Positions 4,905 through 61,702 of a stretch of DNA of 64,000 bases are shown in pieces. Source of the stretch: a virus (lineage: Duplodnaviria; Heunggongvirae; Uroviricota; Caudoviricetes); IMG/VR virus record IMGVR_UViG_3300048574_000421; one strand, given 5' to 3'. The position numbers were made by a program, and so were the translations under genes. Below the pieces are notes generated by a model. The model was given only the letters and a program-made list of their open reading frames with translations. It was not told where the DNA came from and ran no database searches. Numbering within the stretch: position 1 is the stretch's first letter; each line of letters begins with the position of its first letter.

Positions 4905-4957
4905 TTTAATGAAGAGCTGGGATAGCTCTTTAGACAGGACAGGGATAAAAATTAAAA

Positions 4958-17649: not shown

Positions 17650-17917
17650 AAAAACAAATCATATTAGGTTTGTCTTTAAAAAACATATATGCTCTACCTG
17701 TGTGCAATGCTCCAACACTAGAACATTTTTGTAATAATTGCGTCACTTGGCATTCTATAGATTGCATTGCAATATTATTTATACAAGAAGTTAAATGATT
17801 ATTATAGATATGCACAATTTGATTTGAAAAATCAGGTACTATAGAAGTGTCAATACACATACTTTCATCAAATTCTATTTGCAAATTATCTTCAAATTTG
17901 ACAACTCTTGCACGCAT
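17561..17917 (-). CDS. hypothetical protein (118 aa)
   Basis: ORF track. It overlaps the 5' end of 16666..17649 by about 90 nt, so one of the two starts is probably later than listed. Confidence 0.3.
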   Translation of the reverse strand: MRARVVKFEDNLQIEFDESMCIDTSIVPDFSNQIVHIYNNHLTSCINNIAMQSIECQVTQLLQKCSSVGALHTGRAYMFFKDKPNMICFYANENKFVFKDVFKRKISRFQFVFGDCNG

Positions 17918-18525
17918 TATTTCTTTCCATCAAACATGAAAGATTCATCAATTTCAAAAAATTTTGAAGCAACATTTTTCAACTCTTGTGAAGTAACATT
18001 CTTATTAGCAGAAAAAGAATATACTTCTACTTGAATATTTTGCAACTTTAAATACTCTACTAATGCTACAAAATCACCATCACCCGAGACTAAAACAACA
18101 GTGTCAAGAGCATCTTTCTTAGTGATGATATCTATTGCCATTTCAATATCTAAATTGCCTTTTGCTGACCCATCACTTCTTTTTTTCAAATCTTTTGAAA
18201 CTATATTGTAACCAATCTGTTTTAAAAAACTAACAAAACTTGTATTATCATTATCTCCTTTTACAAGATAAGCATTTGAAACACAAAGTTTTCTACCTTT
18301 AGTAATGCATTCAGTAAGTTTCTTAAAATCTATTTTTTTCTTAAAATTATCCATTGCACCATAATAGACATTTTGAACATCAACAAAAATCCCAACTCTT
18401 TCGTCAGGTGTGTTTCTGTTCTCTACTCTTACTTGAAACAAAAAATCCCCTTTAAGGGAATCAACAGCTTCAAGTAGTTTTTTATAGTTCTGTATTTTAC
18501 TTTCTTTCATTTTTTCCCTTATCAT
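17917..18525 (-). CDS. NYN-domain (LabA-like) putative ribonuclease
   Basis: GIFVDVQNVYYG ... VLVSGDGDFVALVEYLK...G..V.V matches the NYN/PIN-like acidic-residue pattern. Confidence 0.6.
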   Translation of the reverse strand: MIREKMKESKIQNYKKLLEAVDSLKGDFLFQVRVENRNTPDERVGIFVDVQNVYYGAMDNFKKKIDFKKLTECITKGRKLCVSNAYLVKGDNDNTSFVSFLKQIGYNIVSKDLKKRSDGSAKGNLDIEMAIDIITKKDALDTVVLVSGDGDFVALVEYLKLQNIQVEVYSFSANKNVTSQELKNVASKFFEIDESFMFDGKK

Positions 18526-25044: not shown

Positions 25045-25878
25045 TTATTGACAAGATAGACATCTTTTTGCATTATGAGCTTTAGCTACAAAAAGATTAT
25101 TACATTTGATGCATTTTTTTTCATACAACTTGGGATTGTTTTTTTTCGTATCACTAATTTTTTGTTTTGATTTTTCAGTATGAACCTTTCCAAAAAACGA
25201 ATTACCTTTACCTTTTGTCCGAGCACTAATATTCTTTTTTACTTCTTCTGAAAACTTCTTACCCTCAAGACTTTTAGTTATTTTTTGTTTAGACTCTAAA
25301 CTATGTTTTTTGCCAAACATTCCGTTATTTTCACCAGAAGAAGCACGACTTAATTTTCTTTTATGAGATTTAGAAAGAACTCTACCTTTATTTGCATTAC
25401 TTACTTTATCTTTTGCTTCTTGCGTATGTTTTCGTCCATACATACCATTTTTTTCGCCTGCTCCCTTGCCTTTTCTGTTTCTTTTTAACTTTCTAAGCGA
25501 TTTATCAGACAAATTATGTATTCCGTCACCACCATCTGTCAAATTTGTTAAAGGCCCAGTTTTTAAATCTATTCTACCAATTGATTTTATTAACTGTATT
25601 TCAAGTTTAGAAGCATCAACAAAGCTCAAATCTGTTTTTATTTTAATTCTAAAAGCATCTACACCTGTTTCTCTTTTAATCTTACAAATTTTATTTGCTT
25701 TTAATTTATTTGAGTCTTTATGTTTGTAAGCAGACTGTAAGTGGTGATCTATTCTATTTTCTCTTCCTAAACCTATATAAAAGGGTTCAAATGAAAACAA
25801 ATTATCAAAAACAATTGGTTTTCTTGGATCTAAATATGCATAAACATAAAAATCAGTTTTTTGACGATTTAATTTCAT
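25045..25878 (-). mobile_element. free-standing GIY-YIG homing endonuclease with NUMOD3 repeats
   Basis: GIY-YIG core FYVYAYLDP...PFYIGLGRENRIDHH. Three NUMOD3-like DNA-binding repeats (GMYGRKHTQEAKDKVS, GMFGKKHSLESKQKIT, SFFGKVHTEKSKQKIS). A C-terminal CxxC...CxxC. Confidence 0.75.
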
Positions 25879-26506
25879 TAATTGTTGCCAGTGCTATGCC
25901 TATAGAATCTGCAATATCATTGTTGACACCACAATCGCTATAAATATCAGTACTAATTTTTTCATACTGTTTATCAAACTCTTTCAATTTTTTGCTTAAA
26001 TCTTTTTTATTGATCCCTTGTTTTTTCCCATCAAGTTTTATTGAAATCGTATCAGCTTTTATTCTGTTAAAATCTTCTTTGTATTTTATTATTTGCTCTT
26101 GTCTTAAAAAATTAAAACGAGAACAAATCTCTACTTGAACTTCTGCTTTTAATGAACTCCCACTAATTCCTAAATTTTTCTTCCAAGCTGGTGGCTCAAA
26201 AAAAAATGGTTCTTTTTTCTTATATGAATACACTTGAAAAATCGCAACACCCGAAAATCTAGAAAGTACTTTAAGAATTTTAGGCCCTCTCATAAACGCT
26301 ATTTCTTCAATACCAATTTCGTCTGGATTATGTAATTCAATTGTTTTTTTTAATTCATTTCCTAAAAGGTGTAAACGTTGTATTGTACTCATAGTTTTTT
26401 CACCTCGTATTAAACCATAAGCAACAACAGAAATATTGTTATCAATTAATTTTAAAACACTCCAGCCAGTACTTTGTGTTGAAACATCTAGACCCATAAT
26501 TTTCAT
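25853..26506 (-). CDS. ruvC: RuvC-like Holliday junction resolvase
   Basis: N-terminal IMGLDVSTQSTGWSVL (the RuvC motif MxxxGIDPGxxxxGxAV with its catalytic Asp) and an RNase H-like fold length. Confidence 0.65.
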   Translation of the reverse strand: MKIMGLDVSTQSTGWSVLKLIDNNISVVAYGLIRGEKTMSTIQRLHLLGNELKKTIELHNPDEIGIEEIAFMRGPKILKVLSRFSGVAIFQVYSYKKKEPFFFEPPAWKKNLGISGSSLKAEVQVEICSRFNFLRQEQIIKYKEDFNRIKADTISIKLDGKKQGINKKDLSKKLKEFDKQYEKISTDIYSDCGVNNDIADSIGIALATINEIKSSKN

Positions 26507-31317: not shown

Positions 31318-32874
31318 TCAATTTTTTATTGCATCAACAAAATATTGTGGGAAAAATTTTCTATTTTGTTTAAGAAAGTAATTAAATTGACTATCCATGA
31401 TGTAGATCGTGCAAAAATCTTTTTCATGTCTTACACCACGACCTGCAGCTTGAACAAGCGTCAAAGCTGTTTTCCACTTATACCATTCACTATCAAGCTC
31501 CATACGTTTTTTTATTTGTTTGTCTCCCAAAAACATAAATGGCAACTTAACTATAACAACAAATCTTGCAAGATCGTCTTTTAAATCAACACCTTCTGTC
31601 ATTGAAGGTGTGATCAAAACTTTAGGCTCTTTTGTTTCTAAAAAACCTTTAAGTGCGTTAATTCGAGATTCACTATCATGTAAAATTAATCTTGATTGAT
31701 ACTTAGGATCGACGTTTTCTTTTATGTAATTTGCAATTTTATAAGAATGTGCATGAATCAATCCTTTTTCTGAATCATGAAACTCTAAAATCCTGCCTAT
31801 ATCAAAAGCTATTTTGGGTAAAGATTCTTCAATGTCGTTTTTTCCTAAATTCCCAGACCTTGTTAATATGATTGGTCTTATATCTACAGGAAATGAAGAA
31901 GGAACTTGAATAAACTTTGTCTTCTTAATATCTAAATCTAAATTTTTACAAAAACTATCTTTATCAAGAATTGTCGCTGACATAAATAGTTTTTTTTCAG
32001 CATGCCTAAAAAGTAAATTTTGAGCAAAAAACCCGACAGTTAAAGGTTTGAAAATAATTGTTTTTGACCTTAACTTTTCGTTAGTTGTTATATCAAAGAT
32101 CCACTCTATTTTCCCATAACTCTCCAAAAACATTTTTACACGTTCTTGTTGACTTATTAAGCTCTCAAGCTCTTTTTGAAGGTCAGAAATTATTGCTACA
32201 TCAAGAAATTTGTTTTTCAGTTTTTCTGTAGTTTCTTTTCTTCTTTCTTTTATTTTCTCTTGAAGCATCTTTAACCACTCGACATATTCTTCGAGTTTTT
32301 CATATAAAGGTATTTTTGAAGTTACACCAAGTTTTGAAAGATTGAAAGACGAAAAACTAAACTCAACAAACGACATACACTCATTATCTAAACTATGTGC
32401 TTCATCACATATCAAAAGTTTTCTATCAGGAAAAGTATTTGTGTAATTTGTAATACAAAGAAAGTACTTATAGTTCATTAAAGCAACAAAAGATTCTACA
32501 GCTTGTTGTTTTGCAACTTCATAAAAGCACTCGGGTTTTACAGGACATTGTTTTGTAGAACAATATGAATCTTCACATGTAAAATCAGGAAGCAATTTGC
32601 AAGGATAGTTGTTTCTACCTTTAAGAACTCTAACTCTACCCGAACTATAATCTTTTATGTATTGATCTTGAAGTATTTTTTGCGACGTTAAAAGGAAAGC
32701 AGATTTATAATAAAGTCCCAGACAAATTGCAATAGCGCTTTTACCTGAACCTGTAGGGCTTTCCAAAACAACATTCTCTATTTCTTCAGAATCTAAACTC
32801 TGTTGTATGTCGAGAATTGTTTCTTTTTGAAAAGGTCTGAACGTCGTGTGTGGGAAAAAATCGAGAACGCTCAT
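31318..32874 (-). CDS. XPD/Rad3/DinG-family Fe-S DNA helicase
   Basis: Motif I ESPTGSGKS, DEAH box ICDEAHSL, a Cys cluster between them (YPCKLLPDFTCEDSYCSTKQCPVKPEC), and motif VI QAAGRGVRHEKDF. Confidence 0.7.
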   Translation of the reverse strand: MSVLDFFPHTTFRPFQKETILDIQQSLDSEEIENVVLESPTGSGKSAIAICLGLYYKSAFLLTSQKILQDQYIKDYSSGRVRVLKGRNNYPCKLLPDFTCEDSYCSTKQCPVKPECFYEVAKQQAVESFVALMNYKYFLCITNYTNTFPDRKLLICDEAHSLDNECMSFVEFSFSSFNLSKLGVTSKIPLYEKLEEYVEWLKMLQEKIKERRKETTEKLKNKFLDVAIISDLQKELESLISQQERVKMFLESYGKIEWIFDITTNEKLRSKTIIFKPLTVGFFAQNLLFRHAEKKLFMSATILDKDSFCKNLDLDIKKTKFIQVPSSFPVDIRPIILTRSGNLGKNDIEESLPKIAFDIGRILEFHDSEKGLIHAHSYKIANYIKENVDPKYQSRLILHDSESRINALKGFLETKEPKVLITPSMTEGVDLKDDLARFVVIVKLPFMFLGDKQIKKRMELDSEWYKWKTALTLVQAAGRGVRHEKDFCTIYIMDSQFNYFLKQNRKFFPQYFVDAIKN

Positions 32875-33323
32875 ATATGCTCTATATCTTGTACTTTTGA
32901 TTTTACAATTTTATCGAAATATGAGGGCTTTATTTTCACTACACGCTTTCGTATTTCAACTATAATTCCATCTATATTTGAAAGATCACCTTGTTTTATA
33001 ATTACATGATCCCCTGTTTTAAATAACGAAGGTTTTGTTTGTTTTAATTCTACGTCAGTAACAGATAGCTTTTTAATTTGTGCTGATGTAAATTTTTGCG
33101 GACCTTCTTTTTTCGTCCCAAGAAATTTCAATACACCTTCAAAAACTAAAAAATTACTTACTTGTTGTGGTAAAATAGCAGTAGTAGAACGAATAAAAAT
33201 ATAACCTGAAAGCTCTTCTGAAGTAAACACTTCTTGAAAAGCCAAACTTTTTTGTTTTGAGACTAATTGATCTCTAATATATTGCTCAAAACCTTGGCGG
33301 ACTAAAAGAATATACCAACTCAA
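32871..33323 (-). CDS. NusG-like transcription antitermination protein (NGN + KOW)
   Basis: NGN start WYILLVRQGFEQYI. C-terminal KOW GDHVIIKQGDLSNIDGIIVEI. Confidence 0.6.
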   Translation of the reverse strand: MSWYILLVRQGFEQYIRDQLVSKQKSLAFQEVFTSEELSGYIFIRSTTAILPQQVSNFLVFEGVLKFLGTKKEGPQKFTSAQIKKLSVTDVELKQTKPSLFKTGDHVIIKQGDLSNIDGIIVEIRKRVVKIKPSYFDKIVKSKVQDIEHI

Positions 33324-34743: not shown

Positions 34744-35898
34744 TTATTGTAGGGCTAATGTAAATACGTTTTGCATATTTTTTGCATCATTAAGTGATTT
34801 TTCAAATTCATCTTTTGTACAATCATCAGGATCTTTTCCTTCAGGCAATACAAGATTAAAAACTTGAATATCTGTAAGGTACTCATGCATAATCTTTTGT
34901 GCAGCTTCTTGGCCTGGATTTGATTTTTTTCCATTTATATCTATTTTATTATCGTTATCTAATGCTATATAAATTCGTTCAAAATTTTGAACTAACTGTT
35001 TCGTCTTATAAGAGTTTAAATGGCAACTTAAAAGCGCGACAACATTGTATCCAAATTTCATAATTCTTAATGCATCAAAAATACCTTCGCAAATAAAAAC
35101 TTCTTTTTTGTATTTAATTGCTTCATCCCAGTTAAAAAACAACCTACTCATAGGCGTTCCAAAAGGATAAAGTATTTTTTTGTAAAGATATTTATCAATG
35201 ATACGTTGCTTATCTTGTTTTGAAAGATTTTTTGTCTTCATTATAGCTTTTGCTTTTGCCCATATATCTGACTTTCCCGACATATCTCTTGCAGCAAAAG
35301 TAATCAATTTATTTTGTAAATAAACTGGTATTATTAAACGTTCATGAAAAATTCTATCATCAACGCAATACTTCATCCCATATTTTTTAATATCTTCCAT
35401 ACAAACACGTTTTTTTACTATATCGAAATATTTCTCAGCAGGTTCACTTGGGGGCAAAACAACTTCTTTTAATTGTTCATCATCTTCATCTTCTGTATGA
35501 TTTTCATAAAACTGAAATGTAGAATTTTTCACTATTGAAAATACATCAACTGTCTCATCAATTCCCACTTGTCTTCTTGCAAACGCTATTGCTTCTTTTG
35601 TAGAGTTTAGATTTTCTAAGTTTTTTATTAACTTAACAAAATCACCACCTCCGCAAACAAAACAGTTATAAACACCATTTTTTTCTTGAATACCAAAAGA
35701 CGGCGTAGAATCATCATGAAAAGGGCAGAGACACATAAATTCTCTGCCCTTTTTTGTCCTATAAGGCTTATATTCAATATTGTAGTGCTTAAGAACTTTT
35801 TCAAGATTTACTTTTGCGTAAATCTCGTCATAGATTTGTTCATAGTTCTCTATCATTTTTAGCACACGTCTTTTTATACTGACAAAAATAACAATCAC
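34744..35898 (-). CDS. dnaG: DnaG-type DNA primase (zinc finger + TOPRIM)
   Basis: CHC2 zinc finger CLCPFHDDSTPSFGI...CFVCG. TOPRIM motifs CEGIFDALRI and YIALDNDNKIDINGKK...GQEA. Confidence 0.8.
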   Translation of the reverse strand: MIVIFVSIKRRVLKMIENYEQIYDEIYAKVNLEKVLKHYNIEYKPYRTKKGREFMCLCPFHDDSTPSFGIQEKNGVYNCFVCGGGDFVKLIKNLENLNSTKEAIAFARRQVGIDETVDVFSIVKNSTFQFYENHTEDEDDEQLKEVVLPPSEPAEKYFDIVKKRVCMEDIKKYGMKYCVDDRIFHERLIIPVYLQNKLITFAARDMSGKSDIWAKAKAIMKTKNLSKQDKQRIIDKYLYKKILYPFGTPMSRLFFNWDEAIKYKKEVFICEGIFDALRIMKFGYNVVALLSCHLNSYKTKQLVQNFERIYIALDNDNKIDINGKKSNPGQEAAQKIMHEYLTDIQVFNLVLPEGKDPDDCTKDEFEKSLNDAKNMQNVFTLALQ

Positions 35899-36616
35899 CT
35901 AGTCTTGAATTCAATTTAGGTTCTTTTGCAAAATCTTTCTTTGATATTCGTTCAAGCATATTGTTAATTTGTCTAAACAAACTATTAAAATCTTCTTCAG
36001 TTCTTTGTGTAAACAAAATATCTCCATCAATAGGATATGCAAGCGCTCCATGAATTGATTCTAATGGATATTTATATAGTTCTTTAATGAAAAAACTATA
36101 AAAAGTGATTTGTGTATTGTTGTCAATATCTTTCTCTTTGCTTTTTGAAGATTTCCAATCAAGACAAATGATTATTTCATTGTTCTCAAGAATAATATCA
36201 ATCCTACCTGACAAAAAAACATTATCAAGATAAGGATTAATAAAGGGTATCTTACAATATTTTTCTATTTCAACTACTCTAAAACCTTCCCAACGTTTTT
36301 TCATTTTCTTGACATTTCCAATTTGCAATAATCCCTTAACTAAACAATCATCAAGTTCTTTTGCATTAGGAAAATTTAAACCCTTTGCTTCTGTACAAAA
36401 AGCTATAAACAATGCTTTCCAAGATGAAGCAATTTCATCTAAACTCATTCCATACTTGAAATGTAATTCTAAAGCTTTATGTAAGACTGAACCAAAAGTC
36501 GTAAAAATATATGCTTCATCAGCTGGTCTCTCATCAATAAACTGCCATTTGTACATTTGCGAACATTTAAAAAACGAAGACAAAGATGATGAAGAAACTG
36601 TTAAATAATCTCTCAT
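35840..36616 (-). CDS. Cas4/RecB-family PD-(D/E)XK nuclease with Fe-S cysteines
   Basis: N-terminal Cys (FFKCSQMYKWQF) plus a C-terminal CYFCQYKKTCAK triad. Core residues GRIDIILE...LDWKSSKS fit D...E.K. It overlaps the primase gene by 59 nt. Confidence 0.6.
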   Translation of the reverse strand: MRDYLTVSSSSLSSFFKCSQMYKWQFIDERPADEAYIFTTFGSVLHKALELHFKYGMSLDEIASSWKALFIAFCTEAKGLNFPNAKELDDCLVKGLLQIGNVKKMKKRWEGFRVVEIEKYCKIPFINPYLDNVFLSGRIDIILENNEIIICLDWKSSKSKEKDIDNNTQITFYSFFIKELYKYPLESIHGALAYPIDGDILFTQRTEEDFNSLFRQINNMLERISKKDFAKEPKLNSRLGDCYFCQYKKTCAKNDREL

Positions 36617-37959
36617 GATTTCATCTCGTTAAACAAAAACTCTACTGCTTTTTCATTTACTGTACCAATGTACATCGAGTTATAAGGTATTTTATTTTGT
36701 AACAGATCTTGCTTAATTTTTGCCTCTCTATTAGAATCAAATTTTAAAAGATTTGTAATTCTCATTGTATAAGCAACAACTTCATCTTCTGTAGCTTTGA
36801 TATCAAAATCCTTAACAATCTGTTCTATAACAAGTGACGTCTTCACTACTTGAATTGTACGAGGTGTTGTGTTTACGATAAAACTTTCTTTTGTTACTTT
36901 GCTTTCTTTTTCAAGTTGTCCTTCAGTTTTCCCCATACGTCTCAATAAAGCTTCCCACTCATTATCATTTTCTTTATCGATCATCACTTGTGGAATTGGT
37001 GAAATTTCTGATTCATCAACAATTTTTGAAAGAATGACTTTTTTAAACGTATCAATTGATTTCTTTTGTTTTTCATCAAGTAAACGAATTTTCAAATTAT
37101 CTTCATAAGCTTGAATAGAATCAAAACCCTTTGATTTTGCAAAACTGTCATTATAATCAGGTGCGACTTTGTATTTTATTGCATTTAGTTTTACAGTAAA
37201 TATAACTTTTTTACCTGACAATTCTTTACTATGATAATCAACAGGGAAAGTCACATTTACTTGACGTACTTCGTTAATTTTCATTCCGACAAGTTGATCT
37301 TCAAAATTATCAATAAATTGCTTTCTTCCATTGACAAGATCATTTACTCTAATCTGATAGTTCTTTGCTGTTCCACCTTTAAAAGGTGTTGTTTCTCCAT
37401 CAAGAACACCTTCAAAATCTATTAAAGCAATATCAAGATTTTCTAAAATTTCTTTTGTAGAGTCGTGAATTGTTTCGCTTTGTTTGATTTCTGCATCAAT
37501 CTTCTCTTTTAACTCAACATCAGAAATAGTTGTTGCTTCAAGTTTCTCTGTTTCTTTTATCTTATCTAATGAAACAAGTTTGACAGTCGGTTTTACTTCA
37601 GCAACAAACTCTATAGTAAGTGTTGATTTTCTTTTTAAATCTCCAAAGATCTTAAAATCTCTAGTCGAGACAAGACTAGTTTCTAATGTCGCAATGTCTC
37701 TAACAATCTGATCAATCATTGATTTATATAAACGTTCAACGCCAATTTTAGTTTCAGCAACATCTTGAGGTACACAACCTTTTCTAAAACCTGGTACTTC
37801 GATTTCAGACTTTACTCGTTCGTAAGCAGCTTTCTTTCTTTCATTCACATCATCAGCATCAACTGTGACAATGTATTTTACAGGTGTTGGCATTTTTTCT
37901 GTCTTAATGTCCATTATACTACTCCTTGTCTTTCTCGACAACTGTCGAAGATGCTTCAT
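36613..37959 (-). CDS. tig: trigger factor homologue (ribosome-associated chaperone/PPIase)
   Basis: Ribosome-binding signature PGFRKGCVP (TF: GFRKGKVP). FKBP-like domain IDFEGVLDGETTPFKGG...VNVTFPVDYHSKELSGKKVIFTVKLNAIK (E. coli TF: IDFTGSVDGEEFEGG...[27 protein letters not shown]). The overall three-domain length is 448 aa. Confidence 0.75.
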   Translation of the reverse strand: MKHLRQLSRKTRSSIMDIKTEKMPTPVKYIVTVDADDVNERKKAAYERVKSEIEVPGFRKGCVPQDVAETKIGVERLYKSMIDQIVRDIATLETSLVSTRDFKIFGDLKRKSTLTIEFVAEVKPTVKLVSLDKIKETEKLEATTISDVELKEKIDAEIKQSETIHDSTKEILENLDIALIDFEGVLDGETTPFKGGTAKNYQIRVNDLVNGRKQFIDNFEDQLVGMKINEVRQVNVTFPVDYHSKELSGKKVIFTVKLNAIKYKVAPDYNDSFAKSKGFDSIQAYEDNLKIRLLDEKQKKSIDTFKKVILSKIVDESEISPIPQVMIDKENDNEWEALLRRMGKTEGQLEKESKVTKESFIVNTTPRTIQVVKTSLVIEQIVKDFDIKATEDEVVAYTMRITNLLKFDSNREAKIKQDLLQNKIPYNSMYIGTVNEKAVEFLFNEMKS

Positions 37960-39364
37960 CTACTCTTGAGTCATATTCAAATCTCATAATATCGAATTTT
38001 TTTATAAAAAACAGTTTTGAAACACGTGAGTCTCTTGTCTTAGGAAAATCAAGACATGCTGTTTCATCATCTCCTGTGATACCCATCATATTATCTACAT
38101 TGTGTCCAAGTTTATCAGTGAAAGCTGCATCCATAGAATCAACTTCTTTACCGTGTAAATGTCTTTTGTGCGACTCTCTATTAAACTGACTTGCTCCTAT
38201 AATTGGAATACTTCTTGATCTTGCAAGCAATTTTAGATCCCATGAAATTACTCCTACAGGATCGTCTGATTTTCTATCGCTTGGTGTCATTAAATAAATT
38301 GGATCTATAATTAAAAGGTCAACCCTTTTACCCGAAACATTTTCGAAAGCAGTAATTCTTGAGTCGATAAATTGACAATTGCAATTTTGAGGTGCATCAA
38401 TTATCCAGTAAAAATTTGAATGATCTTCTTTGAGCTTCTTCATTTTTCGTTCTATTAATTGTAGCTCTTCATCGCTCATTAAATCTGGTGTCTTAATTTT
38501 ATTGTATGCTACTCTTGTGACTAAGGATGTGAATCTATTTCTTTGTTGCACTAATGGCATTTCAATTGTGACATAAATGATATTGTAACCTGATTTATAT
38601 GCATTATAACCAAAATTCAAAAGCAAAATAGATTTTCCCATACCTGGTCTACCAAGAACCAAAGAGAACTCACCAGGTTGCCAACCACCAGTTGCTTGAT
38701 CTATTTTTTTATAGCCTGTAGTTATTCCTTGGTATTTTTCAGGGTTTTCGCGTTTTTCTTTTAACTGCTCTATATACAAGTCAACGTCTTGAACAACATC
38801 TTCTTCTATAACTCTATATTTTCCATTAGAAAGAAGAACTTTATTTACAGAGTCTTGTATGTTTTGTGCCAAAACCATTGCTTCGTGTTTTTCGTCTACA
38901 AAGTCATGTTTTAACTGTTCATTTATTTTCAAATTAATGTCAAGAAGACTTCTATAAAAAAACTTCTCTTTTAATTTATCATACATTGGTTTAAAAGATT
39001 TGCTCTCAAATCTGTATGAAAAAATCTTCTCTAAAACTACCTTTTTTTGCTCGTACTCTTCTTGTTCTTTGTACTTAGATTTTAGCTCATCAAATAAAAA
39101 ACTTTTAGATACACATTCTGAAAAAGACACAAAATTTTCTTGTAGTTTAGAAAACATCCATTGTTTAAAATCTGATGTGAATACTTCTTTAGGTAAGCCC
39201 AAAAATGTTACGTAAGACAAATTTGAGTTTATCTCGTCAACATCTGTTTTCATATCAAAATCATTATCGAAAACAAGCAGTCTTAAAACTTTACATTCTA
39301 AAACAACATCGACAAATGGTTTTGTATTTTCACTTGGAGCATCAGTTTGTTTTCTTGAAATCAT
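37919..39364 (-). CDS. dnaB: DnaB-family replicative DNA helicase
   Basis: GYKKIDQATGGWQPGEFSLVLGRPGMGKS (Walker A), a Walker B-like LLIIDPIYLM, and the RecA-like C-terminal domain. Confidence 0.85.
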   Translation of the reverse strand: MISRKQTDAPSENTKPFVDVVLECKVLRLLVFDNDFDMKTDVDEINSNLSYVTFLGLPKEVFTSDFKQWMFSKLQENFVSFSECVSKSFLFDELKSKYKEQEEYEQKKVVLEKIFSYRFESKSFKPMYDKLKEKFFYRSLLDINLKINEQLKHDFVDEKHEAMVLAQNIQDSVNKVLLSNGKYRVIEEDVVQDVDLYIEQLKEKRENPEKYQGITTGYKKIDQATGGWQPGEFSLVLGRPGMGKSILLLNFGYNAYKSGYNIIYVTIEMPLVQQRNRFTSLVTRVAYNKIKTPDLMSDEELQLIERKMKKLKEDHSNFYWIIDAPQNCNCQFIDSRITAFENVSGKRVDLLIIDPIYLMTPSDRKSDDPVGVISWDLKLLARSRSIPIIGASQFNRESHKRHLHGKEVDSMDAAFTDKLGHNVDNMMGITGDDETACLDFPKTRDSRVSKLFFIKKFDIMRFEYDSRVDEASSTVVEKDKE

Positions 39365-40119
39365 AATTTATCCAATAAAGATTCACCAATTATATTTCTA
39401 TAGTCTTCGCCTAATAATTTAACTTCAATTAATCTCTCTTTGAAATTTGAATAAAGTGCTTCACCCAGCAAATCTCTATTTGACTCTAGAGGATGATTTG
39501 AAGTAATTATTGTACACAAATTTGCATCATCACGCTTTGTAAATATTTCGTCAATATTTGCACGTTCGCTGTCGTTTATCTGACTAAATAATCTACCTAT
39601 ATCGTCAATAACAAAAAATGTACTGTTATTCACAACATAAGAAAAATAAGCTTTTTTTTCTTCACTTTTCCAACCCGATCTAACAAAATCTATTATTTCT
39701 GAAGATCTGCTAAAAAAAGAAGGGTAATAATGTTCAATTGCAATTTTTAAGATAATGATTGCAATTGCAGTCTTCCCAACACCATGTGAACCAGAAATAT
39801 ACAATCCTATTCCCTCTTTAGCAGCTTTTTCAATCGATGAAATATATTTCTCGATCTTTTTAATTTGTTCGCCATTAGACTCTATAGTTTCAATTTTGTC
39901 GCGTATTGTTGAAAATTGAAACTTAAAATATTTTTCTGGGATATTTGCAAGTAAAAAGTTTTTCTCAAAAAAATTATCAACAGAACTGTAATGACTCAAT
40001 CTTTCAACAATTTTTTCATTTCCAAATCTTGAAATATCTATCATGCGATGAAAATGCGACCAAAATTCATGCTTTAAAGGACTATCTTGTTTTTTTCTTG
40101 TTATCATTGTTGTATCCAA
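39361..40119 (-). CDS. DnaC/IstB-like AAA+ helicase loader
   Basis: Walker A ISGSHGVGKTAIAI. Walker B FFVIDDIG. 4-nt overlap with the dnaB-like gene. Confidence 0.6.
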   Translation of the reverse strand: MDTTMITRKKQDSPLKHEFWSHFHRMIDISRFGNEKIVERLSHYSSVDNFFEKNFLLANIPEKYFKFQFSTIRDKIETIESNGEQIKKIEKYISSIEKAAKEGIGLYISGSHGVGKTAIAIIILKIAIEHYYPSFFSRSSEIIDFVRSGWKSEEKKAYFSYVVNNSTFFVIDDIGRLFSQINDSERANIDEIFTKRDDANLCTIITSNHPLESNRDLLGEALYSNFKERLIEVKLLGEDYRNIIGESLLDKL

Positions 40120-41943: not shown

Positions 41944-44900
41944 TTAAAAGTGCTTCTTTACTTTAAACAAAGGTTCAGATTCGTAAATTTTCATTCTTTT
42001 CTTTGAATGACCAGTAAGATATCGAATTCTATCATAAAAATCAACAATAATTGCTTCTTTTTTTTCATTATTTTCAGCTGAAGGGTATGGTCTTAACGTA
42101 CGTCCCACTCTTTGTAAGGACTTAATAAGCGATTTGCCTCCACCTGCCATAATTGCTGAACCTAAAGCAGGTATGTCTACACCTTCGTCAGCAACAGAAC
42201 TTCCTACAAGAACTTGTAATTGTTTTTTACGAACTTTGTTAAGTAAATCTTTTCGCATCTCTCCATCAACTTCACCTTGTATAAAAGCAACAGAGCTAAC
42301 TCCCGCCTTGTCTAGCATTTCACATAACACATCACCATGAGGTAACCTGGTGACAGTAATCAACACAGACTTACCTAACTCGAGTAATCGTAGGCAACTA
42401 TCAACAATCATTTCATTTCGAAGTTTATTGTTAACAATATAATCTTCGTAAATATTCCTAAAAGATTTTTGGACATATTTATATCTTGGATGCTCATTTG
42501 GGTCAAGCATGTAGATGTGAGGTTGTACAAGAAAACCTCGTTCTATAAGAAAAGATGCATCAATGTTACAAATCTGTCTGCCTGAATAAGCATCAAGCAC
42601 TTTATCAATTGATTTGTCTCTATAAGGTGTTGCTGAATTGTGAACAAGTACACCATTTGCGAAAAAATTCTGATTTTCTGGGCCTACATCTTCAATAGTT
42701 AAATCTAAAAGAAAATCTTCATTATTTTCTATTTCGTTTTTTGAAATTAATGTGATTATTGGATCTTCAAACAGTAAAAAACTTAATTTTTGTTTTAGTC
42801 TAAAAGCTTTAAGATCTTCTCTTCTCAAAACTAAGTAATTAAAATTTAATGATTTATAAATTTCATCTTTATAGTAAGGTATTCTATCCATACCATCATA
42901 TTCAAGATAAAAATCTTTTCCTTCATGTTTGACTTTAAAATCAGCAAAACATCTAGTTCCAGGAATGTTGGGATGTATTTCGTGACTTATATTATTCTTG
43001 TAAAGCCAATTATCAAGCATCATTTCACCTTTAGAATCACAAATATGCCCGTCTATAGCTTTAACAGATTTTGCATATCTTTTTACGCCTTCCCTTTTTA
43101 ATCTTGATTGCGAGACAAGACCAGAAATAATCATTGGCGTTATTATTTTTAATCTTTCTTCTTTTGTTTTCTTACTCCAAGCTTTTTTTGATCTTTTACT
43201 AACAAGTTCAGAATCAATAAAATTTGGATGGTGACACATTCTTTCAAATTTTTCAGGTTCTTCTTGTCTTAAGTGCTGCATTGTCTTTTTTTGCCTTGCA
43301 CTCATTTTTTCTCTATCTTTTTTTGTCAAATTCTTAAAAAATTCTTGTGATGCTTTGTTTCCTAGTTTAAGGAAGCTTTTTCGTCTAACCTGTTCATCAT
43401 CAGATAAACTGTCCCACCATTCTTTACGTTTTTTTGTTCTTATTTTATTCGATTCTTTAAGTTTGCATCTATCAGAACAATATTTATGTGGTGCAACAAC
43501 TTCTTTTCCACAAACGCAAAATCTTTTTATTTTCTCTATTGAACTAAACTTATCACCTATAGTCAAATCTATTGCTTTTTTAAAATCATTAATATCATTA
43601 ACATAAAATAAATGTGTTTCAGCACAAATTATTCTTATTTTTTCTTTATTTTCATTTTCAAAAATCAACTCAAATAATCTTTTTCCTTTGGCATCAATCT
43701 TAATAATTCTTGCTTTTTTAGGTTCCAATATTTTTTTAATTAGATTAAAAGTCATAACTTGAATAAATTTATCTTTATTTGCATAATACAAAGGTGATAA
43801 CTGACATTCTCTACCATCAGCAAGTAAGACTTTAGTTTTTTTATGAAGGCATAAACTGTACCGGTAATATGCATTTTGATATAATTTTGCCATCTGAATA
43901 TAAATCTCAGCAGTTGCACGATGACAATTACTTACAAGTATTCCTTCAGCAAAATAATTGTGATTATCTTCAACCTCAATATTATACCTTTTCTCATCTT
44001 TTATTTTCTTTTGCATCCTTACGCTCTTAACAACAGCTTCATCATGATTAAAAACAAAAGTGTTTATTTTTAATTTTGTCTCTTCCCAATTTTCTTCTAT
44101 GTCTTCATTTGTTAAATAAAGACATTTAAAATCTATTGATTCAAAACCCTTTTTTACTCTTTCAATCTCTTCTTTTGTGTGCCAAAAAGTTATATTACCA
44201 ACTTCAATTACTTTTCTTTGGTTTTTAATTTTAAAATCGGGATTTTTACTCCAACATTTTCCATCAGGTTTAGTGCCTATTCTTAACCAAAACTTACCAT
44301 TACCTGTATATCTAATCTCTGGTATTTTCAAATCTAGTATTGCTTGTTCTAAACGTGTTGGCTTTATTTCTTTTCCTTTTATACGTTTAGGTGCATTCAT
44401 AAATCTTTCTCTAACTATAGCCTTTTCTTCTTCTGTTTTATTTTCAAAATTTTTTAACCAGCCCAGTCTCATTCTCTCTCTTATTACAGGATTTTTATTC
44501 ATTTTAGACATTAAGCTTGAACGTACTTTAAAATGCTTCAATTTTGATTGTTCAGAAAATTTTATTTTTTCTCTGTGCACTCTCTCTCTATGTAAACATC
44601 TATGTTTTTTACAATAAAATCTTGGTCTTGACCTATTTGCATTAATTTTTAACACATCACTCTCTAACAAATCTTTTGCTTGAACATAACCCCTATTTTT
44701 TGTCCAAAACTTATGACTTGGTGTACAAAATATTAATTTTTCTTTTCCTTTAAAAACAAAAGTTATAATACACCAAGGTTCAGAAACTTGCGTTATTAAT
44801 CTACGTAATATTCGTTTTTGCTCAAAAATTTGTTTTTCATGATTATAAGATAAAACATGTGTAATTGCATCATTTTCACAAATATCTTTGATGTACATAT

Positions 44901-45675
44901 ATTCATCTAAACTTATATGTACGTGGGTTTCTGCTTGAAAACACTCATCATTTATTACAACATCAGCTTCAAGTACAGCTTTTCTAATATCTTCTTTTCT
45001 TTCAAGAACATGCTTTTGAATTTTTTCTTTAAACATGTTCTCTTCATCAATTGCACTGTATTTCAAATCAAATGCACTATGTAAAGTCTGTACAGTACAA
45101 ATATTTATTTGTTTAATATCGCAATGACCACCACCTATTTTCCCAACTTTTATTTGAAACATCTTTTCGAATTCATCAGCAGTTTGTTCAAGTAAATCTA
45201 TTGAATAAACAATGAAAAGAGTTTTTAAATTCAATCGTGCTACAATTGCAGCAGCAATAACAGTCTTGCCACCACCAGTTGCAACTTTTATTACACCACG
45301 TTCAGCTTCAATAGATTTTTCAACAACTTCATGCTGATAATCTCTTAATTGTTTTGAATGCATTTGCAAAGGTTCACCAATAATTGGAACATTACGTGCA
45401 TCTACAACATTAAAAGATAGACGGCAGTCATTTAATATGCTTTCTAATGTCGAATAAAGTCCTGTAGGATAACGAAGTTGTTCACGTTCAAAAAGTGTTA
45501 TATCAAGTTCTATAGTTTCTTTTCTAAATCTCGAATACTCTTCTCGAGAATAAGACATTTCATGCTCAATACGTCTAACAAGATCAGTATTCAATCTTAT
45601 GTTAGGTTTTAAATGAGTCCAAGTGTTTTCTATAACAATATCAAAATCTGCCATATTACTTTCTAATATAATCAA
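41944..45675 (-). CDS. SF2 DNA helicase (UvsW/XPB-like) precursor interrupted by two inteins
   Basis: Motif I KVATGGGKTVIAAAI. Motif II is reconstituted as VVINDE+CH (a DECH box) when residues 245-583 are removed. Motif III SATPYR follows residues 609-1013. Motifs V and VI are GSSVADEGVDIPALGSAI and QRVGRTLRP. Spliced size is about 499 aa. Confidence 0.8.
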   Translation of the reverse strand: MIILESNMADFDIVIENTWTHLKPNIRLNTDLVRRIEHEMSYSREEYSRFRKETIELDITLFEREQLRYPTGLYSTLESILNDCRLSFNVVDARNVPIIGEPLQMHSKQLRDYQHEVVEKSIEAERGVIKVATGGGKTVIAAAIVARLNLKTLFIVYSIDLLEQTADEFEKMFQIKVGKIGGGHCDIKQINICTVQTLHSAFDLKYSAIDEENMFKEKIQKHVLERKEDIRKAVLEADVVINDECFQAETHVHISLDEYMYIKDICENDAITHVLSYNHEKQIFEQKRILRRLITQVSEPWCIITFVFKGKEKLIFCTPSHKFWTKNRGYVQAKDLLESDVLKINANRSRPRFYCKKHRCLHRERVHREKIKFSEQSKLKHFKVRSSLMSKMNKNPVIRERMRLGWLKNFENKTEEEKAIVRERFMNAPKRIKGKEIKPTRLEQAILDLKIPEIRYTGNGKFWLRIGTKPDGKCWSKNPDFKIKNQRKVIEVGNITFWHTKEEIERVKKGFESIDFKCLYLTNEDIEENWEETKLKINTFVFNHDEAVVKSVRMQKKIKDEKRYNIEVEDNHNYFAEGILVSNCHRATAEIYIQMAKLYQNAYYRYSLCLHKKTKVLLADGRECQLSPLYYANKDKFIQVMTFNLIKKILEPKKARIIKIDAKGKRLFELIFENENKEKIRIICAETHLFYVNDINDFKKAIDLTIGDKFSSIEKIKRFCVCGKEVVAPHKYCSDRCKLKESNKIRTKKRKEWWDSLSDDEQVRRKSFLKLGNKASQEFFKNLTKKDREKMSARQKKTMQHLRQEEPEKFERMCHHPNFIDSELVSKRSKKAWSKKTKEERLKIITPMIISGLVSQSRLKREGVKRYAKSVKAIDGHICDSKGEMMLDNWLYKNNISHEIHPNIPGTRCFADFKVKHEGKDFYLEYDGMDRIPYYKDEIYKSLNFNYLVLRREDLKAFRLKQKLSFLLFEDPIITLISKNEIENNEDFLLDLTIEDVGPENQNFFANGVLVHNSATPYRDKSIDKVLDAYSGRQICNIDASFLIERGFLVQPHIYMLDPNEHPRYKYVQKSFRNIYEDYIVNNKLRNEMIVDSCLRLLELGKSVLITVTRLPHGDVLCEMLDKAGVSSVAFIQGEVDGEMRKDLLNKVRKKQLQVLVGSSVADEGVDIPALGSAIMAGGGKSLIKSLQRVGRTLRPYPSAENNEKKEAIIVDFYDRIRYLTGHSKKRMKIYESEPLFKVKKHF
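42637..43851 (-). mobile_element. intein 2 (405 aa) inserted immediately before helicase motif III
   Basis: Block A is CLHKKTKVLLADGRE. Block B is CAETHLFYV. C-terminal blocks are LLDLTIEDVGPENQNFFANGVLVHN followed by the +1 Ser of SATPYR. The internal zinc ribbon is FCVCGKEVVAPHKYCSDRC. The DUF559/Vsr-like module is LDNWLYKNNISHEIHPNIPGTRCFADFKVKHEGKDFYLEYDG. Confidence 0.7.
43927..44943 (-). mobile_element. intein 1 (339 aa) inserted in helicase motif II
   Basis: Begins with Cys (CFQAETHV...). Block B is CTPSHKFWT. C-terminal blocks are YNIEVEDNHNYFAEGILVSN followed by the +1 Cys. The internal module LEQAILDLKIPEIRYTGNGKFW...PDFKIKNQRKVIEVGNITFWH is DUF559/Vsr-like. Boundary codons were checked against the nucleotide sequence. 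Confidence 0.7.
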
Positions 45676-46505
45676 TTAACAGATTGTTTTAAAGACTTCC
45701 ACCAAGTTTCGTTTTCTTTATACCATTCAATAGTATCTGCAAGACCTACGCTCAAATCTATAACAGGACTCCAACCATACTGCTTATTGAGGCTTTCATA
45801 GTACATTGTTTGGATCTTTTCGTCAGGTTTTGATAACTCTATTGCATCTTTAGGAATCTTTAAATAATCAGCTATAAAAAGTGCTATATCGATGTTTTCA
45901 ATTTTATTACCACCACCAAGCTCATAAACTTTTCCTGCATTACCATAATGCATCAGCGTCTCAATCCCTCTGCAAAAATCTAAAACATTAGTCCAATCTT
46001 TTGTGTTTGGGTCTGGAACAATTAATTTATTTCCTTCAAGTGCATTTGTAATTAATGTAGGTATAAATTCTGTTGGATGTTGAAACAAACCATAATTATT
46101 AGAATGTTTCAAAACTAGCACTGGAATTTTATCGTTGAAAAAATGTGAAAGCGAAATAATGTCAATAGATATTGATTTTGATGAAGATATTTGAAGCAAC
46201 TTTTTTGTTTTGTACTTTTTTATAATTGCAAAAAGTTGTTGGACTTCATTTACACTTTGTCCATCAACAAAATTAACAATAATATCGAAACCAAACCAAA
46301 ATTTAAAAAGCTTCAACAAATCAGTTTGATCTGCATGATAAAAATAAAACTTCTTATTTTGTTCAAATTCTTTTAAATTTTTTATGTTGTCTTCATTTGA
46401 AAGTTTATCAATACACACAACATTATAGTCTGTATATTTGTCTAAAAGTCTCTGGATAAAATTTACTCCAATGAATCCCATGCCACCAACAACTAGAACA
46501 TCCAT
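45672..46505 (-). CDS. NAD-dependent epimerase/dehydratase family protein (RmlB/dTDP-glucose 4,6-dehydratase-like)
   Basis: Rossmann motif VLVVGGMGFIGVNF. It has the RmlB-like SNNYGLFQHPTEFIPTLITNALEGNKL. The catalytic YxxxK is not obvious, so it may be divergent. Confidence 0.55.
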   Translation of the reverse strand: MDVLVVGGMGFIGVNFIQRLLDKYTDYNVVCIDKLSNEDNIKNLKEFEQNKKFYFYHADQTDLLKLFKFWFGFDIIVNFVDGQSVNEVQQLFAIIKKYKTKKLLQISSSKSISIDIISLSHFFNDKIPVLVLKHSNNYGLFQHPTEFIPTLITNALEGNKLIVPDPNTKDWTNVLDFCRGIETLMHYGNAGKVYELGGGNKIENIDIALFIADYLKIPKDAIELSKPDEKIQTMYYESLNKQYGWSPVIDLSVGLADTIEWYKENETWWKSLKQSVN

Positions 46506-46513
46506 TAGAACTC

Positions 46514-49450
46514 CTATTTTGTTACTATTCTTTCTTCAAGATGAAATAAATCAACAAGAATGTTCTCACCAATTTCACCTGTATGTACACCTTTATTACC
46601 TATTTGTACCATAAGATAAAGTTGTCCTGTTGTTTTATTTCTAACCAAAATTGGCATAATAAATTCAGCATAAGTAGAATCAACTAAAGGCTCTTCAAAA
46701 ATAACTTCTAACATTGGTAAACCGAAGAAACCTCTTGGTGCTTGCAATGTTGGCATTGTATAATCTTCTGACCATAATTGTCCTCCACCATGATATCCAT
46801 ATAGATCATATGTTGCAGTTGACCAAAAATCTGAATTATAACGTTTTTTTCCACAACTTGAAATCTCTATTGCAGTTCCATTTCTTAAATGATCATCAAA
46901 TGAACCTGGTAATCTTGGTGAAACAGGAGTGTATGCTTGATTTGAAGTACCGCTTGAACCTGTAACGCTTATAGTTCCTCCACCAGTACCATTATTAAAG
47001 AAAACACCTTTTTCTCTTTTATAAGTTAAAGAAAGTGTTTGACCTCCGACAGAACTACCCTGATAAGGAGTGTATGAATAAATCATTCTTATGTCGGCAC
47101 CATCATGTGGTGCTCCAAGATAGTCGCAATCAATCCACACAGATTGTCTATCAGCCATAGAATTTATATAACTATTATTATATGACTGCGAACAATCAAT
47201 AATATAACCACCAATATCGTACCCATAACCTGCACTTTGTCTGACTTTTATTCTTGTGCCTGCCCATTTGAATTGTGATTCAGTAGCACCTGTAGGAATT
47301 GGCCATATATCACCTGTTTGATTACACAATATTATTCTCGATCCAATAGCAGAACCTGTAACAACTTTATGTTCAAGAACAAAACTTAAAGCAGAACCTT
47401 GATACATATATCCAAGTAATTCGATTTCTGAACCTACACCTGAAGGAATATATTGTAGTGATGACAGTGTTCCAATAAAACTATCTTCTTCTAACAAAAT
47501 TTTGTTTTCAGAAATTATTAAATCAGAAACTTGAAGTCTTGTTACGACTTGTTGCATTGCAATCTCTGTACCACCTGTAGCTGAAGTATAAACACCTCGT
47601 AAATGTTGTAAAGGATATGGTACGTGAACAGTTTTCGCTGTCTTATTAAGAGTCTCAACTTGTAATGTTCGTGTTGTCCCATTTTTTTCTGATGTAGTTT
47701 GAATCAAAGGCGAAATCTTTATTTGTTTACGTTGTTTAACTAGATTAGTCTCCGTAAATGTTTCAGTGTTTGTTTTATTCTCAAATGGATGTTGTAATAA
47801 ATCCTGATAACGCATTGTTTCAGTCTTTATATTTGAACCTCTAACAACTGTTCCACTAGAACCAAATGCAGAAGCATTAAAATACTGAACTCTTAAAAGT
47901 TCATCAGGTGTATAAGTAAGACCTTGATTAACAGGAAATTCAAGATCATAATAGACCCAAATACTATAACTTGTTCCAACCCAGACACCAGGAGGCAAAG
48001 CATAAGTTGCTTGATCTGTATTTAAACCTGCCCAGGCACCTCCTATTATAGGTGTTTTTGCAGTGTCTTCTAAATAAAGACGAGGTGTTGATTTTATAAT
48101 TGTTCCAACAGGTAATCTTGTAGTAGTCTTAAAAACAATTGTATTGCCTATTGCCCAATTTCCTGTACCTGCACCTCTATAAACATCTAAAGCTGTACTA
48201 AAAGTTGTTGTTGTAACTTTAGCAAAAATATCAGACTGTTGTGTGATTGCATCAGACCAATAAATTCTCTTTCCACTTGCTCCAGCATTAGAAAGAAAAT
48301 CATTATAACCAAGAACGTCAGTGTCAGAAATCGAATCATATGCAAGCATTTGTTGCCAATTAGTTCTCAATGTCCCTCTAAAAAGTTTGTCTAAATTTTG
48401 CTCCATTATTTTTTGATAGTCTAATGACAAAGCAATTTTATTTCTAAGATCAACAATATCAGTAGCATCAATTCCATCATTAAATTTTTTATCAGGCCTG
48501 TCAGAAACAAGACTTGAAAGTGGCGTTGAGTTTCCAGCTTGATTATAAGGTACAGATGCTAAATCGCCTGCTGTATCATTATAAGGGTTTGTTCCTCTTC
48601 TACTAATTTTGAACATAGGTATTGCATAAACATAACCGTCAACAGTTTTCAAAGTCGTTTGTGAAGCTTGATTCCCACTTCCTGCACGCCATAAACCTGC
48701 ATCACCAAGTTCTGTAGCCATATTTGTGAAACCATAACCTGTAAGTTGAGGTGAGTTTCCAGCACCTTGAGCTTGAACAGAACTGTTTTCAAAACCTGAA
48801 GAATCAGTGTTTGTAAAAACTACATCAGAAACACAACGTATTCGATATTGTATTTGTACACGTTCAGAAGTTTCTTCATCAAACACAGTATCAATTGAAT
48901 CATCAGGCAAATTTGTTCCTGTAAATTGAACATTTCCAAACTTATACACATATTCACTTGTTGGTTTATTCTGATTATAAGGAACATTATTTTCATCTCT
49001 TGCTCTGAGTTGTGCTCTCCATACTTCTAAAAACACAAAATCAGTACGTCGACTGCTTGGAGCTTCTAAAACTATACAATTCAAAATAGAACTTGTGAAA
49101 TTTGTTCCACCAACAAGAAGCGGCCAACCATTTACTATTGCATTTGGCAATGCTAATTCTTGTTGATTTTCTTGAGCGTAAAACTCTACTGTATTTGAAA
49201 TACCTGAGTTTGTCGAATGTTTATTTTTACCTAAATTTAACCAACCACTTGGTAAAACAGAACGTATTGTGTTAGTGAACATTTCCATTGACAAATCATT
49301 AATCAAATTCCACTCTGAATCTAATGCTGGCTTACCTGTCCTCCAAATGACATTTGTATAAGACTTGTAGTTTGTTTGTATTGTCCTTGAAACTATTTCT
49401 TCAGAAGGTGTCAGTTTTAAAGCATTATAATTATTTGTCCCTAGATTCAT
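46514..49450 (-). CDS. large virion protein, probably tail fibre/tailspike-like (978 aa)
   Basis: G/T/S/N-rich composition and its position next to other fibre genes. No catalytic motif recognised. Confidence 0.45.
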   Translation of the reverse strand: MNLGTNNYNALKLTPSEEIVSRTIQTNYKSYTNVIWRTGKPALDSEWNLINDLSMEMFTNTIRSVLPSGWLNLGKNKHSTNSGISNTVEFYAQENQQELALPNAIVNGWPLLVGGTNFTSSILNCIVLEAPSSRRTDFVFLEVWRAQLRARDENNVPYNQNKPTSEYVYKFGNVQFTGTNLPDDSIDTVFDEETSERVQIQYRIRCVSDVVFTNTDSSGFENSSVQAQGAGNSPQLTGYGFTNMATELGDAGLWRAGSGNQASQTTLKTVDGYVYAIPMFKISRRGTNPYNDTAGDLASVPYNQAGNSTPLSSLVSDRPDKKFNDGIDATDIVDLRNKIALSLDYQKIMEQNLDKLFRGTLRTNWQQMLAYDSISDTDVLGYNDFLSNAGASGKRIYWSDAITQQSDIFAKVTTTTFSTALDVYRGAGTGNWAIGNTIVFKTTTRLPVGTIIKSTPRLYLEDTAKTPIIGGAWAGLNTDQATYALPPGVWVGTSYSIWVYYDLEFPVNQGLTYTPDELLRVQYFNASAFGSSGTVVRGSNIKTETMRYQDLLQHPFENKTNTETFTETNLVKQRKQIKISPLIQTTSEKNGTTRTLQVETLNKTAKTVHVPYPLQHLRGVYTSATGGTEIAMQQVVTRLQVSDLIISENKILLEEDSFIGTLSSLQYIPSGVGSEIELLGYMYQGSALSFVLEHKVVTGSAIGSRIILCNQTGDIWPIPTGATESQFKWAGTRIKVRQSAGYGYDIGGYIIDCSQSYNNSYINSMADRQSVWIDCDYLGAPHDGADIRMIYSYTPYQGSSVGGQTLSLTYKREKGVFFNNGTGGGTISVTGSSGTSNQAYTPVSPRLPGSFDDHLRNGTAIEISSCGKKRYNSDFWSTATYDLYGYHGGGQLWSEDYTMPTLQAPRGFFGLPMLEVIFEEPLVDSTYAEFIMPILVRNKTTGQLYLMVQIGNKGVHTGEIGENILVDLFHLEERIVTK

Positions 49451-61676: not shown

Positions 61677-61702
61677 AATTTTTCTACTCTCATATTAGAT
61701 TA

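Follow-up and report, generated by a model that had tools for sequence, protein, structure and literature searches.

Phages are known to supply folding helpers of their own, among them the co-chaperonin gp31 of T4 and the GroEL-like chaperonin of phage EL. To our knowledge, no chaperone other than trigger factor (TF) docks on the bacterial ribosome, and we know neither of a phage-encoded version that has been studied nor of any co-translational, ribosome-docked chaperone of phage origin that has been characterised. The gene described here lies in a 64,000-nucleotide stretch of DNA (the window) from the IMG/VR record IMGVR_UViG_3300048574_000421, assigned to the Caudoviricetes. As judged from profile matches and a predicted fold, it encodes a genuine and complete three-domain TF, which is placed inside a replication operon between the helicase DnaB and a Cas4-like nuclease. 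It shares the logic of gp31 and of the EL chaperonin, but these are built on unrelated folds and act after translation. The protein adds a well-conserved viral member to a family that was already known.

A TF on another kind of mobile element has been reported in a 2026 preprint on the 'Hodor' conjugative megaplasmids, where it stands beside a class B sortase and SecYEG and was proposed to be a chaperone for giant secreted proteins (PMC12934698). With the element studied here the Hodor system shares a size of more than 300 kb, a (probable) Bacillota affiliation and the coding capacity for giant proteins of more than 2,600 amino acids (aa). Compared by genes and description, the Hodor TF is co-transcribed with the class B sortase on a plasmid of the Rep_3/ParAB/type IV secretion system (T4SS) type, whereas the TF of the window lies between DnaB and the Cas4-like nuclease. 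Text searches of the literature for a phage or virus TF returned no paper discussing one, and only the Hodor preprint was relevant.

Further points of comparison are found among the huge phages. The main text of the study that described them lists transfer-messenger RNA (tmRNA), SmpB and release factors, and TF is absent from it, while 'Trigger factor' coding sequences are auto-annotated in 11 of the first 200 supplementary GenBank files, six of them full-length and some others fragments or lipoproteins (Al-Shayeb et al., 2020; PMC7162821). In PPR-W_PHAGE_36_0 the TF-like gene (81415-82698, 427 aa, signature PGFRKGKAP) lies three genes downstream of a Cas4-like nuclease and three genes upstream of DnaE; in BM_PHAGE_CIR_35_55 (315915-317162) and SR-VP_PHAGE_40_16 (300196-301455) the nuclease precedes TF, and three small genes separate TF from DnaE; and in GWD1_PHAGE_CIR_38_79 (128261-129544) the gene is directly upstream of a split DnaE. 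Like the TF of the window, these four are full-length (415-427 aa), are carried by huge phages and stand zero to three genes from a Cas4-like nuclease and/or beside replication enzymes. However, they are only 23-25% identical to it, and the replication enzyme in their vicinity is DnaE, whereas for the window TF it is DnaB and primase. The docking signature and/or the FKBP pocket is degenerate in three of the four, whereas the clade formed by the window TF and its close relatives keeps both. No homologues of the genes flanking TF in the published huge phages were detectable in the window, and a common origin of all phage TFs received 45 of 100 bootstraps, with long branches. Known beforehand are these genes in published files and the 'trigger factor' labels of automatic pipelines, those of JGI and NCBI already giving this name to proteins of the clade; new is the genomic context, which none of the texts searched discusses.

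The sequence-only reading had taken the minus-strand open reading frame (ORF) at 36613-37959, 448 aa as listed, for a TF homologue on the basis of two strings, PGFRKGCVP and VTFPVDYHSKELSGKKVIFTVKLNAIK, the second of which it had likened to a stretch of Escherichia coli Tig. Both strings are found within this ORF, and the E. coli string aligns at the position of VTFPVDYHSKELSGKKVIFTVKLNAIK in a HMMER alignment to PDB 1w26. Pfam profiles recover much more than a generic FKBP domain, all of them above their gathering cutoffs. The ribosome-binding domain Trigger_N (PF05697, 62.9 bits against a cutoff of 22.2, E=5e-17, profile positions 1-142 of 144) covers residues 1-140 of the 433-aa protein (37495-37914; this and all other window features for which coordinates are given lie on the minus strand). 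It is followed by an FKBP-type peptidyl-prolyl isomerase (PPIase) domain at residues 157-243 (PF00254, 48.8 bits against 21.1, E=9e-13; 37186-37446) and by the substrate-cradle domain Trigger_C at residues 267-428 (PF05698, 52.2 bits against 22.7, E=1e-13, profile positions 2-161 of 162; 36631-37116), a region that is all-helical in the AlphaFold2 model. The NCBIfam equivalog TIGR00115 'tig' aligns residues 27-442 of the 448-aa ORF to profile positions 3-409 of 410 with 240.4 bits against a cutoff of 180.2, a profile match (E=3e-71) far beyond chance, so that the assignment to the TF family is borne out. The sole PHROG match is phrog_26774, end to end (E=4e-49).

Structure libraries give the same answer. 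A sequence search of the PDB returned trigger factors only, with Vibrio cholerae 1t11 at 5e-24 and E. coli 1w26 at 1e-22. The AlphaFold2 model, built from a 60-sequence alignment, has a mean predicted local distance difference test (pLDDT) score of 87.8 and is matched over its full length by Foldseek to ribosome-bound E. coli TF (2vrh_A, 1.6e-21), to 1w26_A (1e-20) and to the Thermotoga maritima protein (3gty_X, 9e-20); the template modelling (TM) scores of 0.52-0.61 for these structures are limited because the domain arrangement of TF is flexible. The BFVD library of viral structures contained no TF-like match at E<=1e-3. With bacterial Tig (E. coli P0A850, structures 1w26 and 2vrh; T. maritima 3gty) the protein shares the N-FKBP-C order, the GFRxGxxP loop, the pocket aromatics and the predicted fold. 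It differs in its setting, which is the replication operon of a phage-like element and not tig-clpP-clpX, an arrangement typical of bacterial tig without being defining; neither for ClpP nor for ClpX was a homologue found in the window or at six related loci. Identity to the TFs of Proteobacteria (E. coli, Acinetobacter) amounts to 21-25%.

The coding sequence is slightly shorter than listed. A start at 37959 was rejected: this ATG falls inside dnaB in a different frame, and choosing the first in-frame ATG had added 15 spurious codons. The gene in fact begins with the ATG at 37914-37912, since a database twin of 100% identity (P0001, 433 aa, on a contig of 426,911 bp) and all relatives begin at the downstream methionine; the gene accordingly spans 36613-37914 and encodes 433 aa followed by a TGA stop. 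On the coding strand the upstream junction reads GACAAGGAGTAGTATAATGGAC. A Shine-Dalgarno (SD) sequence AAGGAG (37922-37927) stands 7 nucleotides before the start, within the last DnaB codons, and the DnaB stop TAG (37921-37919) sits between this AAGGAG and the ATG of TF. At the downstream end the TGA of TF and the ATG of the nuclease share an ATGA (36613-36616), an arrangement typical of translational coupling when judged from the letters, and the same junction occurs at the related loci L004, L007, L008, L012 and L013. SD-like cores precede the TF start in all eight related loci and, more generally, are found before 42% of genes compared with 5% of background positions. Internal promoter-like and terminator-like sites of the operon were uninformative, being in no excess over shuffled controls.

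The docking signature and the FKBP pocket are preserved. The signature GFRKGCVP (residues 42-49; 37768-37791), the predicted docking loop for ribosomal protein uL23, has F43, R44 and G46 invariant and G42, K45 and P49 at least 90% conserved among 23 clade members, and this conservation holds when 37 bacterial TFs are added to give 60 aligned sequences. In the model the signature lies in a coil between helices 20-37 and 50-56, as it does in solved TFs; docking of the loop on uL23 is predicted from the conservation of this motif. As for the FKBP pocket, which we take to consist of the E. coli TF positions F168, F177, F185, I195, F198, Y221 and F233, the HMMER alignment to 1w26 places F167, F178, Y186, I201, F204, Y227 and F239 of the window protein at these sites. 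All seven positions are conserved in the clade (FFYIFYF), and the set is the same in Staphylococcus aureus TF and nearly the same in Acinetobacter TF. Identity within the clade decreases from the PPIase domain (0.64) over the N (0.49) and C (0.44) domains to the linker (0.32), a ranking also seen in bacterial TFs (0.67, 0.60, 0.50 and 0.48, respectively). Features specific to the clade are five-residue insertions at 191-195 and 407-411, a five-residue deletion after residue 76 and several acidic-to-lysine changes.

The relatives of this TF form a sharply bounded group. A word-seeded search of 5.8 billion proteins recovered 22 relatives at 39-60% identity, followed by proteins at no more than 36%. 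An exhaustive HMMER search of 1.84 billion representatives, which contain 13,794 TF homologues in total, returned 14 clusters at 238-913 bits with the next best at 166 bits. For a neighbour-joining (NJ) tree, Bacillota TFs were added and Acinetobacter served as outgroup; all 100 of 100 bootstraps recovered the clade as monophyletic, and its stem measures 0.69 substitutions per site. The sequence-only reading had proposed such a tree as a way to the donor lineage; in it the sister group of the clade is unstable. Members of the clade share a median TF identity of 49% with one another, 28% with Bacillota and 22% with Acinetobacter. No cellular TFs come nearer than those of Bacillota, at about 28-35% identity, and a scan of 185,579 species genomes yielded Bacillota-type TFs only (mostly Lachnospiraceae and Clostridia, 28-34% identity), a result biased by the seeding of that scan on a motif common to Bacillota lineages. 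The gene would have been acquired once and long ago, probably from a Bacillota-like bacterium; no extant lineage could be named as its donor, and the Bacillota affinity is a lead only.

The sequence-only reading had also located the gene in a replication module, between a Cas4-like nuclease and DnaB, and this proved correct for the window and for every relative examined. The operon runs in the order DnaC, DnaB, TF, Cas4-like nuclease and primase. Directly upstream of TF is a DnaB-type replicative helicase (37919-39364; PF03796, DnaB_C, 6e-31; phrog_19, 1e-56), itself preceded by a DnaC-like helicase loader (39361-40119; IstB_IS21, 1e-7; phrog_50, 5e-28). Directly downstream is the Cas4-like PD-(D/E)XK nuclease (35840-36616; PF12705, 6e-21; Cas_Cas4, 1e-5; PADLOC Cas4, 4e-11), and after it a DnaG-type primase (34744-35898; Zn_ribbon_DnaG, 6e-17, and Toprim), the listed GTG start of which is probably too far upstream, as suggested by relatives of 372-374 aa. 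A NusG-like protein, a superfamily 2 (SF2) helicase (phrog_2488, 2.5e-110) and a 5'-3' exonuclease are also encoded around TF, as are a gp32-like single-stranded DNA-binding protein (SSB), a T4-type UvsX-like recombinase, RuvC and SbcCD.

This gene order is fixed in eight loci from JGI, ENA, NCBI and IMG/VR, the conserved series being o295, DnaC, DnaB, TF, PD-(D/E)XK nuclease, primase, o412, NusG, helicase and exonuclease, with gp32 and UvsX farther along. TF ORFs are intact in all eight (423-433 aa) and all contain the GFR(K/Q)GxxP motif; synteny is kept even in the most divergent members, in which DnaB is 46-51% and TF 38-40% identical. IMG/VR was searched by alignment of the neighbouring helicase, so as to avoid ascertainment through TF itself. 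The contigs with a helicase at least 54% identical numbered five and were exactly the TF-bearing ones (5/5), and 77 more distant loci had no TF within 10 kb; in 76 of these the helicase is 33-38% identical, the remaining one being a distant DnaB-seeded locus. A single-protein search of IMG/VR with DnaB, in which exact 8-mers were required, gave one distant locus only. From these comparisons TF behaves as a core gene of the lineage that is vertically inherited. It evolves faster than the adjacent replication proteins (53-56% identity among closer relatives, compared with 71-84% for DnaB and DnaC) and at a rate similar to that of NusG and o412. The same replication module with TF is also present at L005 (GCA_028717785.1, JAQUND010000006.1, 91 kb), in a metagenome-assembled genome (MAG) labelled 'Candidatus Nanoarchaeia archaeon'; this label most likely reflects faulty binning, TF and tmRNA both being absent from archaea.

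We consider it likely, with a probability of roughly 70%, that the gene product docks on the ribosome as a chaperone which the phage supplies for its own nascent proteins. In phages, the replication module is generally expressed ahead of the late structural genes. The junctions suggest that TF would be co-transcribed and translationally coupled with the replication genes and hence produced together with them. Its GFRKGxVP loop, as the strict conservation of the motif indicates, would dock on uL23 of the host at the exit tunnel, the N- and C-domains would form the cradle expected from the predicted fold and shield nascent chains, and the FKBP domain, with its conserved pocket, would add a binding site and prolyl isomerase activity. 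During infection the phage TF could in this way supplement or replace the host TF, so that phage proteins would fold in higher yield. Speculative candidate clients are large multidomain proteins, among them the 978-aa and 2,664-aa products encoded upstream in the same gene array at about 9-13 kb from TF. Chaperoning of giant fibre-like proteins is plausible and likewise speculative; it is suggested by co-occurrence, with a giant protein of 2,664 aa here and of 2,725-3,493 aa in relatives, and by the parallel with Hodor.

Several observations weigh against such a role. E. coli can do without TF when conditions are normal, so that the benefit to a phage is not obvious; a general folding role leaves the fixed position between DnaB and the nuclease unexplained; and the decayed docking motif or pocket in TFs of other huge phages indicates that some phage TFs are retained for something other than docking. 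The clade is less acidic than bacterial TFs (median isoelectric point, pI, of 5.7 compared with 4.6), which could reflect altered partners, and its median identity to Bacillota of 28% contrasts with 45% among the Bacillota TFs themselves. Finally, Pfam and PHROG scans, which took in nearly all window ORFs of at least 120 aa, found no capsid, portal or terminase gene in the 64 kb, the contig of the twin protein being 427 kb long. In an alternative reading, TF is kept in the replication operon as a ribosome-independent assembly chaperone, which would hold or assemble replisome or recombination proteins (DnaB, DnaC, primase, the Cas4-like nuclease and polymerase) as its clients. The DnaB-TF-nuclease/primase arrangement is invariant across the clade and its junctions appear coupled; at least three other huge-phage lineages (BM_PHAGE_CIR_35_55 with SR-VP_PHAGE_40_16; PPR-W_PHAGE_36_0; GWD1_PHAGE_CIR_38_79) have the TF-like gene close to a Cas4-like nuclease and/or DnaE, as described above, with docking signature and/or pocket degenerate in three of the four copies; and the model also matches 3gty, a TF-S7 assembly complex, T. 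maritima TF handling S7 off the ribosome. However, a docking motif and a PPIase pocket are unneeded off the ribosome, and both are strictly conserved in the clade. Close packing and overlapping starts and stops are commonplace in phage operons and are no sign of a functional link, and the linkage could reflect a common expression class, the flanks of TF in the other huge phages being without detectable homologues in the window. Such a replication-linked chaperone is judged unlikely. We are equally doubtful of a wider version, according to which TF homologues would be a recurrent, hitherto undescribed part of huge-phage replication modules, functionally coupled to the Cas4-like nuclease and the replisome: the clade of the window would still dock on the ribosome, while other lineages would have shed the docking loop and the pocket and kept the cradle for ribosome-independent replisome assembly or nuclease handling.

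Overproduction of TF in E. coli slows export and causes filamentation. It can be imagined that the phage protein is a host-takeover factor which competes at uL23 with host TF, the signal recognition particle (SRP) and SecA and so slows export or division. The intact docking motif, the strong SD, which suggests high expression, and the charge shift relative to bacterial TFs, which could fit altered substrate handling, would agree with this, but a C-domain cradle and a PPIase pocket conserved as in bacterial TFs would be superfluous for a pure competitor. PADLOC matched the protein to no defence family, though its library omits phage counter-defence proteins. On balance a takeover function seems quite improbable. 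The lowest probability of all, that of a long shot, is given to an origin of the window in a cellular genome, a megaplasmid or a chimeric assembly, which would make TF a host or plasmid gene of the usual kind. The missing virion genes, the relative deposited under a Nanoarchaeia label and the existence of megaplasmids of more than 300 kb with TF and giant proteins (PMC12934698) speak for it. Against it, the same gene order recurs on independent JGI, ENA and NCBI contigs, and five related contigs in IMG/VR, the largest of 424,144 bp (IMGVR_UViG_3300029288_006769), are classified as viral. The neighbours are of phage type (UvsX, gp32-like SSB, SbcCD, a homing endonuclease and an intein-bearing helicase); homologues of a 729-aa protein of phrog_2426 occur in 503 phage records, and the closest relatives of the helicase, at about 30% identity, come from Bacillus phage G and other jumbo myoviruses. 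In the window, which has a GC content of about 30%, all ORFs of at least 120 aa except two are on the minus strand, and all large genes share one strand. Among these ORFs the Pfam and PHROG scans found none of the Rep_3, Par, T4SS (VirB/VirD), sortase and Sec genes that define Hodor, and the tig-clpP-clpX context is missing as well; cellular relatives of the TF are at most about 35% identical, with the gap from 238 to 166 bits among the 1.84 billion representatives. The element therefore looks viral, by the IMG/VR class of the five related contigs and its phage-type replication and recombination genes, and the lineage is one of very large (about 190-430 kb) uncultured phages. No close isolate is available: Megablast of the 15 kb around TF against 50,697 phage records gave no match.

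A ribosome-docked chaperone supplied by the phage is the interpretation retained here, and the long-term vertical retention of the gene, as read from the sequence comparisons, implies a real fitness benefit. A full-length TF with intact sites has stayed at one locus while the replisome proteins diverged to about 46% identity. The lineage is hence a natural system for asking which proteins depend on TF, a dependence that is hard to study in bacteria because TF is redundant with DnaK there. Co-translational folding would join the translation steps that huge phages supply themselves. The window also encodes a tmRNA (4955-5360; Rfam RF00023, 127.2 bits against a gathering score of 47, full model), which together with TF would give the phage two ribosome-associated quality-control parts; SmpB was not found in the window. 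The tmRNA and the SD-like cores at 42% of genes indicate an SD-using bacterial host. The tag predicted by ARAGORN, VNKIAVNFALAFANNVRLGMANTIVA, is unusual and does not have the usual ALAA-type end. In unrelated huge phages, TF-like genes recur next to Cas4-like nucleases and replication enzymes, in some cases with decayed ribosome-binding motifs, which hints at a second, ribosome-independent use of the fold.

In practical terms, phrog_26774, listed under 'unknown function', is a TF family, and several tig-bearing 'phage' records are bacterial contamination. A tblastn search of phage records with the window TF gave 28 matches of at most 35% identity. The tig genes in the phage-labelled records OR844993.1, CAKLQH020000005.1 and MT835536.1 were rejected, tig being followed there by clpP and/or clpX; all three inspected records are, by their gene content, bacterial chromosomal contamination. 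One of them also carries leuA and a TonB receptor. In the plasmid database only distant TF matches were present, mostly in mislabelled chromosomes.

Large proteins are encoded upstream in the gene array. The 2,664-aa protein (51304-59298) contains Big_7, CHB_HEX_C_1 and Fn3_assoc domains, the 978-aa protein (46514-49450) has no domain matches, and proteins with GLUG and Listeria-Bacteroides repeats are encoded at 59790-63772. Giant homologues of 2,725-3,493 aa stand at the same relative position in related contigs, and these proteins are probably fibres or adhesins and, as such, candidate clients of TF.

The remaining genes of the window include phage-encoded transcription and RNA factors, namely the NusG/KOW-like protein (32871-33323) and a protein with sigma-70 region 4 (15804-16508), both identified by profile matches, and an NYN-domain RNase (17917-18525; 2.7e-35). 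A GIY-YIG/NUMOD3 homing endonuclease (25045-25878) adjoins a RuvC-like resolvase (25853-26506), again by profile match. The SNF2/DEAD-type helicase (41944-45675; 1,243 aa) has two Intein_splicing matches; its orthologues in L002 and L004 are intein-free and 492-505 aa long, from which an intein insertion of about 740 aa is deduced for the window protein. Two homologues of nucleotide-sugar epimerases (phrog_540; 1251-2231 and 45672-46505) and a family-2 glycosyltransferase (9073-9852) may serve glycosylation of the virion or of DNA.

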